DNA of 28,009 nucleotides from Deinococcales bacterium (lineage in GTDB: Bacteria > Deinococcota > Deinococci > Deinococcales > JAAFIG01), in assembly GCA_043778225.1 (NCBI GenBank), contig JAYWGM010000039.1, forward strand, positions 1-28,009, written 5' to 3'. Numbering within the stretch: the first letter of the stretch is position 1; each line of letters opens with the position of its first letter. A program made the position numbers. Below, piece by piece: positions 18,001 through 21,000 of the stretch.

Positions 18001-21000
18001 TTTTGGGCGGTGCAAACATCGACCCAGTGGCTCGAGCCATGGTTGGTATCACGATTTTTAGCGCGGCGTATCTAGCCGAAAATGTGCGCGGTGGCTTGCA
18101 AAGTATCCCACCGGGGCAAGTCGAGGCGGCTCGAGCCGTGGGTCTAACCGGTACACAAACACTCCTTTTGATTGTCCTGCCACAAGCCTTAAAAGCCGTG
18201 CTACCCGCTTTGGTTGGGCAGTTTATTGGCTTATTCAAAGACACCAGCCTTGTCTATATTATTGGCTTAAAAGAACTGGCGGGAATTTCGGACACCATCC
18301 GCAGCAACCCCGATTTTGTTGGCACAGCCAAAGAACTTTACTTTACAATCAGTATTATCTACTTTATTTTTAGCTATGCCATGAGCAGCGGCGCACGCAA
18401 CCTCGAGAAGACATTAAACACCAACAGATAGGTAAAAAGTAAAAAAGGTAAAACTTGCCCTTAACATTTAACCTTTTGCCCTTTTCACCCTCTCTTAAAG
18501 GAGACCCATGACCCATCCAGTAAAAGACCTGTCCAACGCCCCTGTGGTCATTGCCGCCAATAATGTCAACAAGTATTACGGGCAGTTTCATGCCTTAAAA
18601 GATGTCAATCTCGAGGTCAAACGCGGCGAGGTGGTGGTCGTGATTGGACCTTCGGGCAGTGGAAAAAGCACCTTTATTCGCTGTATTAACCGGCTCGAGG
18701 AACACCAAACAGGTAAAATTACGGTGCAGGGCATCGAGTTAAGCAACGATGTCCGCAACATAGATGCGATTCGCCGCGATGTCGGCATGGTTTTTCAGAG
18801 CTTTAATTTATTTCCGCATTTAAGTGTGCTGCAAAACATTATTTTAGCGCCAATGCGGGTTAAAAAAATCGAGAAAAGCCAAGCCGAAAGTATTGGACGG
18901 CAACTGCTCGAGCGGGTTGGCATTCCCGAGCAAGCCGATAAATTTCCGGGGCAGTTAAGCGGCGGTCAGCAGCAGCGTGTGGCAATTGCTCGGGCTTTAG
19001 CGATGCAGCCCAAAATTATGTTGTTTGATGAACCGACCAGCGCCCTGGACCCCGAAATGATTAAAGAAGTGCTGGATGTGATGAAAGAACTTGCCCGCAG
19101 TGGTATGACGATGATGTGTGTGACCCACGAAATGGGTTTTGCTCGAGAAGTCGCTGATAGGATTGTCTTTTTTGATAAAGGGCAAGTGGTTGAAGAAAGC
19201 ACCCCAGACGATTTTTATCACAACCCAAAAACTGACCGCGCCAAGTTGTTTTTAAGCCAGATTTTGGGGCATTAGTGTTGCTCGAGCCTTTTCAAAAAGC
19301 CAATTTTATGCGACAATAAGCAGCATGAACAGTGTCCTGCAAAATTCAATCGCTCAACTTCCAGCCAGCCAACAACTCGAGTTGGCACAATGGATTCTGG
19401 GCAGTGTAAAAGCACAAATTGAGCATTCCAGTATTTCAGATTTAACACCACCTGAGTTACGCCAAGCGCTCCAACGCGCCATTGATAATCCCAAAAATGG
19501 TAAAACTCCAGAGCAGTTGTTTGAAGCCTTAAAAACCAACCGCGAAGTACGGAATGCCTGATGTACTTCTTGGTTCTTGATGACAAAGTACAGGACAATT
19601 TATTGCAGATTAGCCAAGATTTAAGTGAGGCTCGAGACCAAAAATTTCTACAGACACTAAAAAACTGCCTCGATTTAATTCTCGAACATCCGCTTGCCAT
19701 GCCGAGTATTGGCGTTGACAATGCGTTTCCCGACTTATACCGAATTAACTTAATCACTCTCGTTTACCCAAAAAACGGTCAAACTGTCGTTCTTGCTCAC
19801 AAGACAGCACCTTGCGGTCTGTTCGCGCTTCAAACGTTAATTCGGTTTCGTTGTCACTCCTTTTCTTGACCCTAAACACGCACCTGTCTTGACCACAAAC
19901 GCGCACCTGTCTTGACCCTAAAGATGCACCTTACGGGCTGGGTCGCTGACGGGCGTGGTCGCATAGTCGGTTAATCAGTCAAAATACGCGACTGATTAAC
20001 ACAATTTGGTATAACACCATTTGGGTAGGGCTAAAAACTTAACGCCCTACTTATCTCAAAGTAAGGCGTTTGCAGTTCAAGAAATCGTCTCGAGCGGGGT
20101 ATCAGCCGCTCGAGTCTCAAGCAATTATTTACCGACTGTATCGTTGTAGCGTTTCAAAGCAGCATCGGCTTTGACTTTGGCTTCATCAAGGGCTTGCTTG
20201 GCTGGCTTACCTTTAATCACTTCTTCCCACGCCGAAACCACATAGGTGCGAATTTCGGTGAATTGTCCCATCAAGCAGCCAGCGCTGGTGCTGTTGGATT
20301 TGCTGGTCTCGAGTTGACGAATGGCGGTGATAAAGTTGTTGTTTTTGACTTGTCCTTGCTTGACATCCACACGGCTGGTGACACCTTGCACCACTGGGAA
20401 ATAACCTGTGCCTAAGTGCCAACGGGCTTGGATGGCTGGCTCGAGCATAAATTTAATAAAGTCCCAAGCGCCATCTTGTTCTGGGGCAGCAAAGCCTTTG
20501 AGCATCCAGAGACTTGCGCCGCCAATCGCGACACCATTGCGTTCTTTTAAGAATGGGTAAAACGAGGTGCGAATTGGGAATTTACCACCAACTGCACGGG
20601 TTGCACCAAACAAGTTGGCGGTGCTGGAAACGTACATTGCGGCTTGCGAGTTGACAAAAGCATTTAATGAAGCTGTGCCGTCGCGCCCGACTGGCGCAGC
20701 ATAGCCACCCTGCGCCAAACGCCCAAACATTTCTAAAAATGCCACGGCGGCTGGGTTGTTAAAAGTGGTTTCGGTGGCACGGGCTTTGCGTCCGTTTTCG
20801 TTATTGCAGTAGGCATAACCACTGTTATAGCCAAATTGTTCGATAAACCAAGAATCGGCATTCCAAGTGATTCCATAACGGGTGGTTTTGCCGCTTGCAT
20901 CTTTAATTGTTAGGCGCTTAATCGTGTCCTCGAGTTGCGCGAGGTTATAGAGTGGGCGTTGTTCGACACCGCTTTTATTCAGGGCTTCGGCATTAAAGTA

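Follow-up and report, generated by a model that had tools for sequence, protein, structure and literature searches.

Short intergenic hairpin repeats, present in tens to hundreds of copies and with stems that change in a compensatory manner, are known as REP, BIME and REPIN sequences; they are associated with RAYT nucleases and are targeted by IS110-family elements. Cyanobacterial small dispersed repeats (SDRs) measure 21-27 nt, lie inside short tandem repeats and mini-transposons, and occur in genomes with the hyper-abundant palindrome HIP1. The SDR1-8 repeats of Nostoc and its relatives were reportedly described by Elhai et al. in 2008 (Genome Res 18:1484). SDRs are said to be tiny and self-nested, with a common secondary structure borne out by compensatory changes, and movement through an RNA copy has reportedly been proposed for such elements. 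How REP-like and tiny nested cyanobacterial repeats spread has been open for decades, and clean insertion events are rare.

Here, we describe a REP-like and tiny nested (SDR-type) repeat variant from a Deinococcales genome (G000), starting from one nest in a 28,009-nt stretch of DNA (hereafter the window; contig C39). No description of the family was found in the literature on nested small repeats, Deinococcales/CTCGAG repeats, or Nostoc punctiforme SDRs. It offers many insertion events, empty counterparts, a defined bond in its own loop, and candidate enzymes. Like REP, BIME, and REPIN sequences, the unit is a short palindromic repeat, mostly intergenic and in many copies, with compensatory stems, an IS110-family element that targets it, and a RAYT-like gene in the same genome. 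It differs from REPs and REPINs in having neither a GTAG guide nor inverted doublets, in its 5-6-bp stem around a large structured loop, and in its choice of insertion sites, which comprise its own loop as well as true GTAG REPs, a separate family here (31 strict matches versus 1 in the control). Compared to SDRs, the unit is likewise self-nested, structured, and found in short tandem repeats and mini-transposons, in a genome with its own hyper-abundant palindrome (CTCGAG, where theirs have HIP1); it differs in host (Deinococcota), sequence, and length (36-39 versus 21-27 nt), and in having a defined insertion point, a junction pattern, and a specialized IS110.

Two classes of transposable elements provide further comparisons. 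IS200/IS605 elements and their miniatures also lack the usual terminal inverted repeats, depend on hairpins, and leave no duplication of fixed length. They insert 3' of a specific 4-5-nt target; the unit may likewise follow a short motif, with T before it in 59 of 62 distinct flank pairs and CT in most resolved events, next to other dinucleotides. The unit is, however, a single hairpin instead of one per end, and no strand bias was detected (orientation against local GC skew 28/17 versus 29/25, Fisher p = 0.42, with a weak skew and a fragmented assembly). A DDE-type MITE, with terminal inverted repeats that match a parent IS and a fixed-length target duplication, does not fit: the arms are subterminal and covary, the junction identities vary in length (1-4 nt), and no longer element bounded by the unit's ends was found. 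Beyond G000, 15 of the 18 other genomes in its family (f1, uncultured Deinococcales MAGs) carry the repeat, across 4 of 5 genera, a spread that marks it as family-wide and old. It was found in none of the 22 sister-family genomes searched, with 0 control matches, in line with the family specificity claimed in the genome-wide survey's note.

Sequence and arm covariation of the repeat unit

The unit is a DNA hairpin of 36-39 nt, laid out as T-CTTG, a 5-6-nt arm, 6-8 nt, and GCACCT-N(1-2)-CGGGC, followed by 0-2 nt, the complementary arm, and CGC-(T). The arms are variable yet remain complementary, and the core GCACCT..CGGGC is invariant. A regular expression for the 5' (L) half yielded 207 matches in the genome against 10 in the reversed genome; a stricter version yielded 157 against 3, and an expression for the 3' (R) half 139 against 20. 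Among 159 raw matches containing the centre (31 of them duplicate registers, CTT-CTTGA), 80 had fully complementary 5-nt arms, distributed over six variants: GACCC/GGGTC (43), GACCA/TGGTC (28), GAACC/GGTTC (3), GACCT/AGGTC (3), GATTC/GAATC (2), and GACTC/GAGTC (1). Across 2000 shuffles of the 3' tails, the number that paired averaged 30 and never exceeded 45, and when only distinct unit sequences were considered, 43 of 106 paired against a shuffle maximum of 27. Changes across the six variants are compensatory, and a GCCC/GGGC variant of the unit exists besides.

The earlier estimate of about 75-90 intact copies thus agrees with our 80, with six arm variants instead of five, and "four fifths intergenic" is borne out as well: only 33 of 157 L halves lie wholly inside an ORF of at least 120 aa, versus 91% of the genome. 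In the predicted fold, the core forms a short inner helix, GCAC/GGGC, with a 4-5-nt apical loop, C-T-N-N-C. The modeled hairpin is energetically weak: as single-stranded DNA, one unit folds at -3 kcal/mol (z = 0.04), i.e., no more stably than shuffled sequences, so that the hairpin with covarying arms proposed in the survey's note holds on the strength of arm covariation and not of stability. Tandem and nested arrays were likewise recovered from the genome sequence, and the point at which nested units enter does lie precisely between GCACCT and CGGGC. At C1 and C15, the period of the tandem joints GGGTCGC-TGT-CTTGACCC is 39 nt, the same as for the innermost insert of the window.

The window nest and its host MITE

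On the + strand, window positions 19865-19962 hold three 5' halves followed by two 3' halves, arranged as a nest (LLLRR). The outer unit is represented by L1 at MITE site c (19865..19885, CTTGACCCTAAACACGCACCT, then GT), the middle unit by L2 (19888..19908, CTTGACCACAAACGCGCACCT, then GT) and R2 (19950..19962, CGGGCGTGGTCGC), and the innermost unit by L3 (19911-19931, CTTGACCCTAAAGATGCACCT, then TA) and R3 (19934-19946, CGGGCTGGGTCGC, then TGA). Arms pair in the nested order, GACCC of L3 with GGGTC of R3 and GACCAC of L2 with GTGGTC of R2. The innermost complete unit (19909..19947, + strand, 36-nt core 19911-19946) is a 39-nt insert, GT-CTTGACCC..GGGTCGC-T, which sits after the GCACCT of L2 and itself ends in CT. 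The outer 3' half, CGGGCAGGGTCGC, has been lost from the window where the intact C26 and C101 copies read TCA-CGGGCAGGGTCGC-T. Since L1 is without its partner, the nest has two complete levels plus an orphan outer half; the nesting order of the three-deep example reported at C39:19865-19990 therefore stands, the third complete level does not, and 19963-19990 is the right part of the host MITE instead of repeat. Intact versions of the outer unit with L1 were found at C98:44429-44642, C26, and C101, and the middle-unit type occurs un-nested, with a GA spacer, at C4.

The host is a MITE-like repeat of ~150 nt, about 280 nt here with its inserts (19735..20013), flanked by TA and with the ends TACCGAATTAAC... 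and ...AATTTGGTA. In a blastn comparison of window positions 19300-20120 with the genome, MITE homology began at 19733-19737 and stopped at 20012-20019, and did not reach the small upstream ORFs at 19325-19561 and 19561-19869, for which Pfam gave no family. Tens of copies exist in the genome, many at contig ends, and some of them empty. Units have entered the MITE at three hot spots, site a (TTTGACCC^AAAAACGG), site b (CTGTCGT^TCAAACG), and site c (CACTCCTTTT^AGTCGG). The stretch 19964..20000 (+ strand) does not belong to the repeat family: it comprises TAGTCGG, the right flank of site c, and an 11-bp hairpin that is part of the MITE itself (19970-20000, GTTAATCAGTC-AAAATACGC-GACTGATTAAC). Site b holds a variant "X-type" unit (19791..19829, + strand, T-CTTGCTCACAAGACAGCACCT-TG-CGGTC-TGTTCGCGC-T), the core of which is degenerate here, with CGGTC in place of CGGGC; exactly these 39 nt are absent from other MITE copies, and public-run contigs of other MITE copies skip 39 nt as well (19789->19829). 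Rfam gave no match in the window at the gathering threshold.

The same nest-in-MITE composite was found again at C26, C85, and C101, so that these nests and that of C39 are copies and not separate nestings: the nested clusters listed in the earlier note are real, but these four represent one MITE-carried composite instead of independent events. Nest composites spread passively with their host MITE, the window nest being such a copy, and recombination or slippage between units deletes parts of them, as in the window, which has lost R1, and at C85 and C101, where sites a and c are fused (a-c fusions). Recombination between units is also visible in a hybrid L1 at C101. Both observations could be taken to mean that units are immobile by themselves, with nests and tandems arising through recombination between copies and any spread being that of passengers of MITEs or duplications. 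We consider this very unlikely, as it does not account for discrete single-unit inserts in unrelated contexts, single-copy or repeated in another way (a tRNA-like gene, REP loops, octamer arrays), or upstream of RAYT-like genes in three species, and recombination at unit centres would yield tandems and not nests with matched arms.

Filled and empty insertion sites

Whole units are discrete inserts, and otherwise identical sequences exist without them: in G000, we obtained 68 filled/empty pairings for 10 filled clusters, and filled sites with empty counterparts cover at least six kinds of target. Inserts at filled sites consist of a 36-37-nt core plus 2-3 nt, and are overall discrete at 36-40 nt. 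The targets are single-strand-prone places, namely the apical loop of another unit (after GCACCT), the loops or arms of GTAG-type REP hairpins, a tRNA-like anticodon loop, TAACCTTT octamer repeats, and the three MITE spots. At the tRNA-Ile(UAU)-like gene, a 37-nt unit interrupts positions 33/34, after C32-U33, with CT on both sides, and among REPs of one arm class 4 of 18 carry a unit in the loop (six interrupted REPs overall). Insertion into the unit's own loop produces nests, and head-to-tail joints produce tandems.

At the junctions, the 3' end of the insert and the target share 1-4 nt, usually CT, the exceptions being CA (twice), TT (MITE site c), a single T (MITE-B), C (two REP loops), and TCG (once). 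At position +1, T accounts for 47 of the 62 distinct flank pairs, C for 8, A for 6, and G for 1. These variable identities resemble microhomology no less than a fixed cleavage site, and units could be copied with no dedicated enzyme, either when replication switches templates or when stalled hairpins undergo microhomology-mediated repair. This would fit the short and variable junctions as well as a 5' boundary with none, T, GT, CT, or TTT before CTTG, targets that are fork-stalling hairpins and repeats, and searches that yielded no matching transposase. On the other hand, insert ends are very constant, with T at -1 in nearly all flank pairs and always a ..CGC end, the single-strand hairpin is weak, and four genera have retained the invariant core, a sign that it is recognized by its sequence; we thus regard enzyme-free copying as unlikely. 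Movement through an RNA copy, by transcription, reverse transcription, and integration, appears extremely unlikely: the SDR-like behavior of the unit and a single reverse transcriptase gene (C65:9796-10242) would speak for it, and we saw neither a poly-A or priming signature nor an Rfam family match.

Two further comparisons concern the history of individual sites. Public-run contig joints skip 39 nt and 100-101 nt at unit and nest boundaries, and these contigs show no allelic polymorphism because they represent further copies of the MITE and fail to connect unique flanking sequences. An orthologous empty site for the window locus was unobtainable, as its flanking genes lie on different contigs in 7 of 7 genus relatives, which are only 75-87% identical, with scrambled synteny. 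A search for L...R pairs with matching arms 100-8000 nt apart returned no autonomous longer element with unit ends, the only such pairs enclosing the IS110 and a 176-nt MITE.

Given these patterns, the likeliest reading, at about even odds, is that of a mobile, non-autonomous DNA element measuring 36-39 nt, a single-strand hairpin moved in trans. The unit would move as single-stranded DNA, and a trans-acting nuclease would cut and rejoin it, cleaving at sites adjacent to CT or CA, within hairpins or alongside them.

The IS110 element and the Y1 enzymes of the genome

The one IS110 gene of G000 lies inside the innermost unit of the C26 nest, and the ends of the element (about C26:31608-30446) fall within 3 nt of those given by the survey's note, which had placed it at the unit's insertion point. 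Its transposase has DEDD and Transposase_20 domains and matches the NCBIfam IS110 RNA-guided transposase at 208 bits (cut-off 140), and a CT core is present at both junctions. The 5' UTR is predicted to fold into two stem-loops (-60.1 kcal/mol, z = -3.5), and Rfam gave no match on the locus at E <= 1. Reading guide complementarity by eye from the sequence, we found that AUCGCACCU in this 5' RNA has the same sense as the left target and GUCCGUAAG is antisense to CTTACGGGC, while ACGGCUGC and AAAUUACGAG in the donor loop match the element's own ends. The bridge-RNA target loop of this family-specific IS110 is thus complementary to GCAC-CT-TACGGGC, and the element homes into the same phosphodiester as the units. 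Among IS110 relatives in 9 genomes, all 12 left junctions and all 11 right ones lie in unit centres, a count that leaves out five fuzzy matches (<=4 mismatches) not at IS ends (L195, two on the + strand and one on the - strand at 77; L200, + strand at 14; L203, + strand at 390). Both the target-loop complementarity and these relatives make the link between IS110 and the repeat stronger than previously stated.

Like IS621 and ISPpu10, which also target REP-like hairpins, the C26 element combines a 5' RNA of two loops with a CT core and a repeated-hairpin target; for ISPpu10, a preprint presents the target stem-loop as an additional determinant. The C26 IS is itself ordinary, and what is new is the target family, which takes its own copies at the same bond. 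A bridge-RNA IS that specializes on a host-tolerated repeat bears on natural safe-harbour targeting.

The shared bond also raises the question of whether the IS110 recombinase moves the units in trans, via single-stranded circles joined at ..GGTCG-CT-(G)TCTTGACC.. that would recombine at the CT core of another unit's centre. The IS and the nested units share both the phosphodiester and the CT core, the predicted circle junction equals the tandem joints, and 9 of 9 genomes with the IS also have units. We withdrew the argument that a 38-nt double-stranded circle is impossible, since two preprints on IS110 and IS621 describe circles of single-stranded DNA and "half-match" recombination, which makes a 38-nt circle physically conceivable. 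Still, the donor-binding loop matches IS ends and not unit ends; REP loops, the anticodon loop, octamers, and MITE sites share no flanks readable by one guide; several unit junctions are without CT; and G000 has only one IS110 gene. Seven unit-bearing genomes, including G006 (94% complete) and G011 (92%), had no IS relative at E <= 1e-20. Mobilization by the IS110 recombinase therefore seems quite unlikely to us.

For the unit as a single-strand hairpin moved in trans, the candidate nuclease would be an HUH Y1 enzyme, e.g., the resident RAYT-like protein. The survey's note rightly described the IS605-type Y1 element at C28 as unrelated to the units, and its tnpA-tnpB was rejected as mobilizer since the hairpins differ; the note had missed a second, RAYT-like Y1 gene at C32:27219-27881. 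The product of the latter has an intact HUH motif and tyrosine region and matches Pfam Y1_Tnp (36 bits, cut-off 23) and NCBIfam REP_Tyr_transpos (E = 5e-16, with a score of 58.8, below the curated cut-off of 80). A search for an IS91-type Y2 transposase gave no match, in control genomes either, and so carries no weight. Genome searches yielded no transposase matching the units; a dedicated one may be unassembled, given a genome completeness of 89%. The leading candidate, as a tentative guess that falls short of an even chance, is an enzyme of the HUH Y1 type, e.g., the C32 protein. According to PMC8266576, the dinucleotide at which RAYTs cut on the 5' and the 3' side of REP stem-loops is CT, for one enzyme also CA; the unit junctions, mainly CT with two CA events, match these dinucleotides. 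Against a RAYT-like enzyme, the unit is without the GTAG that RAYTs need, the 5' foot of its hairpin being TCTT (top strand) or AGC (bottom strand). Nor do RAYT and repeat consistently go together across genomes: G013 and G010 have RAYT-like genes and no units, and such genes also occur in 10 of 48 genomes from sister families, a group in which no units were found.

The most specific version of this reading, which we find doubtful, is that a domesticated HUH (RAYT-like) nuclease excises a single 37-39-nt hairpin, among the smallest transposable elements known, and pastes it in single-stranded form. Cuts would fall beside CT or CA, and the targets would be exposed hairpin loops, the unit's own included. 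If the enzyme is RAYT-like, its cutting rule could be read directly from unit junctions. If true, this would be the first natural, genome-readable record of RAYT-type transposition events, within a three-layer system in which an IS110 bridge RNA would be tuned to the parasite's loop as a safe harbour.

Some units lie next to the RAYT-like genes themselves. A unit is found <=40 nt upstream of such a gene in 3 of 26 loci (G000, G006, and G018), each time inserted in a GTAG REP, and the corresponding sites in G001, G007, and G015 are empty. The G000 and G006 inserts, for which G001 and G007 provide the empty comparison, are of different unit types and at different offsets, and the filled site of G018 compares with the empty one of G015.

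Structure and distribution of the repeat family

The hairpin repeat constitutes a real family. CTTG-N11-15-GCACCT matched 207 times in the genome compared to 10 times in the reversed genome, and stricter patterns for the two halves of this 36–39-nt unit yielded 157 vs 3 control matches for the 5′ half (L, up to GCACCT) and 139 vs 20 for the 3′ half (R, from CGGGC). Among 159 raw matches spanning the unit centre, i.e., the point between GCACCT and CGGGC, 31 are duplicate registers and 80 have perfectly complementary 5-nt arms, while 2000 shuffles of the 3′ tails gave a mean of 30 and a maximum of 45 fully paired matches. 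For distinct sequences only, 43 of 106 paired, against a shuffle maximum of 27. Fully paired units comprise six arm variants (43, 28, 3, 3, 2, and 1 units), with GCCC/GGGC as an additional variant. ORFs of ≥120 aa cover 91% of the genome but contain only 33 of the 157 L halves. Together, these half-site, arm-pairing, shuffle, and ORF-overlap tallies reproduced the unit counts of the genome-wide survey’s note. We infer a hairpin because the arms covary; folding energy gives no support, with −3 kcal/mol (z = 0.04) for a single unit and −13.1 kcal/mol (z = −0.4) for the whole nest in the window, both as single-stranded DNA. In the predicted fold, an outer stem of 5–6 bp leads through an internal loop to a short GCAC/GGGC inner helix capped by the apical loop C-T-N-N-C. 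In “X-type” variants the inner helix is longer, and a change from TA/TA to CA/TG is again compensatory.

The pattern CTTGACC-N7-10-GCACCT-NN-CGGGC occurs in four of the five genera of the genome’s own family (15 of 18 further genomes), and none of the 22 genomes examined from four sister families has it; the backwards-read control gave zero matches. The family is therefore old and lineage-specific, with a core that is still invariant. When a single representative of each species was scanned, carriers were uncultured “Deinococcales bacterium” MAGs, and isolated matches in unrelated taxa of high GC content appear fortuitous. Our literature searches found no published description of this family, whose insertions have left an unusually legible record and for which an enzyme hypothesis can be put to the test. 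In its mode of action the unit resembles a REP or a miniature single-strand transposon; its behaviour is like that of cyanobacterial SDR elements, which also nest, occupy short tandem repeats and mini-transposons, and have compensatory stems.

A nest within a MITE-like host

In the window, two convergent transporter genes, encoding an ABC ATPase (18508–19275, +) and a solute-binding protein (20125–21438, −), are separated by two small overlapping ORFs followed by a stretch rich in repeats. This interval (19276–20124) is a synteny break: each of the 7 genus relatives has the two transporter genes on separate contigs. The small ORFs (19325–19561 and 19561–19869, with an ATGA overlap) resemble a toxin-antitoxin pair; they have no Pfam match and are carried by one relative only (G001). 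Searching positions 19300–20120 against the genome with blastn identified 19733/37–20012/19 as a copy of a ~150-nt MITE-like repeat, with ends TACCGAATTAAC... and ...AATTTGGTA and TA on both sides, an IS630/Tc1-like signature. This MITE has tens of copies in the genome, many located at contig ends. Its homology ends before reaching the upstream small ORFs, the second of which extends into the MITE. A second MITE family, TA-flanked as well and with ends AGTAYCTC, has one copy exactly in a unit centre (contig C1, reverse-strand coordinates 24383–24593).

Comparison of MITE copies revealed three hot spots of unit insertion: a (TTTGACCC^AAAAACGG), b (CTGTCGT^TCAAACG), and c (CACTCCTTTT^AGTCGG). 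The window copy holds an X-type unit with a degenerate core at b (19791–19829) and a nest at c. On the forward strand, this nest consists of L1 (19865–19885, CTTGACCCTAAACACGCACCT, then GT), L2 (19888–19908, CTTGACCACAAACGCGCACCT, then GT), L3 (19911–19931, CTTGACCCTAAAGATGCACCT, then TA), R3 (19934–19946, CGGGCTGGGTCGC, then TGA), and R2 (19950–19962, CGGGCGTGGTCGC, then A-TAGTCGG...), with GACCC/GGGTC enclosed by GACCAC/GTGGTC. It had been described as three-deep (19865–19990), and the three 5′ halves do occur in nested order, but the outer 3′ half is absent. Since L1 has no 3′ partner, the window example reads LLLRR; intact copies elsewhere carry TCA-CGGGCAGGGTCGC-T at that position, and the missing half was apparently lost by slippage between the two GGTCGC repeats.

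The inner composite, a GACCAC unit holding a GACCC unit in its centre, is repeated in MITE copies on contigs C26, C85, and C101. The C85 and C101 copies take their outer 5′ half from a unit at MITE site a, so the a-to-c segment has been removed by unit–unit recombination. The nests of the window, C26, C85, and C101 are copies of one structure, although the survey’s note had counted them separately. Independent nests at C4, C11/C15, C23, C28, C42/C56, C53, C58, C86, C94, C101:80338, and C1 combine other arm types, which indicates that nesting is recurrent.

Insertion events and junctions

The mobility of the unit is well supported. Because unit hosts are repeats too, filled and empty versions coexist within the genome, giving 68 pairings for 10 filled clusters. 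In every pair, the filled-minus-empty difference was the core CTTG...CGC (36–37 nt) plus 2–3 nt, and target and insert were briefly identical at the junction. The shared bases were CT in nests (GCAC-CT^...GGTCG-CT^NNCGGGC), in TAACCTTT octamer arrays, in two further repeat contexts, in the REP upstream of a RAYT-like gene (in this genome and, independently and with another unit type, in G006), in two REP loops (CCCT^GT), and after C32-U33 of the anticodon loop of a tRNA-Ile(UAU)-like gene. They were CA at MITE site a and in a comparison of G018 (filled) with G015, TT at MITE site c, T in another repeat host (MITE-B), C in two REP loops, and TCG in one REP arm. What these targets have in common is hairpin loops or repeats that are readily single-stranded. 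Across 62 distinct flank pairs, the base preceding CTTG was T in 59, and CGC was followed by T (47), C (8), A (6), or G (1). Extra 5′ bases vary by unit lineage (none, T, GT, CT, or TTT) and reappear in the tandem joints CGC-TGT-CTTG and CGC-TT-CTTG, as expected if the unit takes some of its flanking bases along when it moves.

The tRNA-Ile(UAU)-like gene (C28:~45852–45962, −) is split at the 33/34 boundary of its anticodon loop by a unit of 37 nt. ARAGORN calls this unit an intron, and two adjacent ARAGORN “intron” tRNAs have a doubtful look. Tandem octamers (TAACCTTT and variants) host units repeatedly, e.g., on C48, C51, C61, C64, and C94, recalling cyanobacterial heptamer repeats.

Candidate mobilising enzymes

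The genome’s single IS110-family gene sits, as had been noted, at the centre of the innermost nested unit at C26, where GCACCT and TACGGGC directly abut the element ends (GCACCT then TGTAAGTT... on the left, ...ACGGCTGCT then TACGGGC on the right, with CT at both junctions). Its 5′ leader (187 nt) forms a pair of stem-loops when folded (−60.1 kcal/mol, z = −3.5). Read by eye, stem-loop 1 contains AUCGCACCU, in the same sense as the target’s left half, and GUCCGUAAG, antisense to CTTACGGGC (9/9 pairs including one G-U), while stem-loop 2 contains ACGGCUGC, in the same sense as the right IS end, and AAAUUACGAG, antisense to the left IS end. Nine of the 19 family genomes contain DNA relatives of the IS, and all visible junctions (12 distinct left and 11 distinct right ends, leaving out five spurious fuzzy matches) are flanked by a unit half, with several arm types. 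IS110 elements are already known to target REP-like hairpins; the unit family as target and the conserved specialisation on it are new. Mobilisation of units by IS110 would be physically conceivable, since two preprint abstracts report single-strand circles and half-match recombination. However, we consider it unlikely because the donor loop fits the IS ends and not the unit ends, non-self unit targets lack common flanks readable by one guide RNA, and seven unit-bearing genomes show no relative of this IS at E ≤ 1e-20. The IS605-type Y1 element at C28 was rejected, its hairpins being unrelated to the unit, in agreement with the survey’s note.

Most likely, the unit is a single-strand hairpin element that is non-autonomous and depends on an HUH-type nuclease acting in trans, the main rival being unit copying through template switching; no longer element bearing unit ends was found in this assembly. 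Our leading, if tentative, candidate for this enzyme is a RAYT-like Y1 (HUH) protein whose gene, absent from the survey’s note, was located by tblastn with a relative’s protein at C32:27219–27881 (−), between trpE and a HIT/trpG pair, a position it also holds in several family genomes. The protein has an HVH and a tyrosine region and matches Pfam Y1_Tnp (36 bits) and the NCBIfam “REP-associated tyrosine transposase” (E = 5e-16, score under the cut-off). Upstream lies a hairpin of the classical GTAG REP type, (GTAG)GGACAGAC-loop-GTCTGTCC (31 strict matches vs 1 control), into which a unit has inserted in this genome and in G006; in G018 a unit occupies the REP of a paralogue. This GTAG-REP family is separate from the unit (GTAGGGACAGAC-CCCCGT-GTCTGTCC, with compensatory arm variants, e.g., on C52, C94, C41, and C2). 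RAYTs are reported to cut single-stranded DNA at CT on either side of a stem-loop, one enzyme also at CA (PMC8266576); CT and CA are the two commonest unit junction identities. Counting against a RAYT, the unit lacks GTAG, its junctions include bases other than CT and CA, units showed no strand bias relative to the weak local GC skew, and RAYT-like genes also turn up in two unit-free genomes (G013, G010) and in sister families (10 of 48 genomes). The unit thus differs from REP/RAYT systems in missing both GTAG and RAYT/unit co-occurrence, and it does not qualify as a DDE MITE either.

Beyond the repeat family, the sole reverse-transcriptase gene of the genome (C65:9796–10242, −) lies in an open frame of 454 aa and matches RVT_1 at 49 bits. 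The sequence GCGATCGC is rare, with 22 matches on both strands together. CTCGAG, a hyper-iterated palindrome comparable to cyanobacterial HIP1, occurs ~24,900 times in 4.03 Mb where ~980 are expected (length/4096), roughly 25×, and its sites in the window include 19631–19636, 20090–20095, and 20110–20115.
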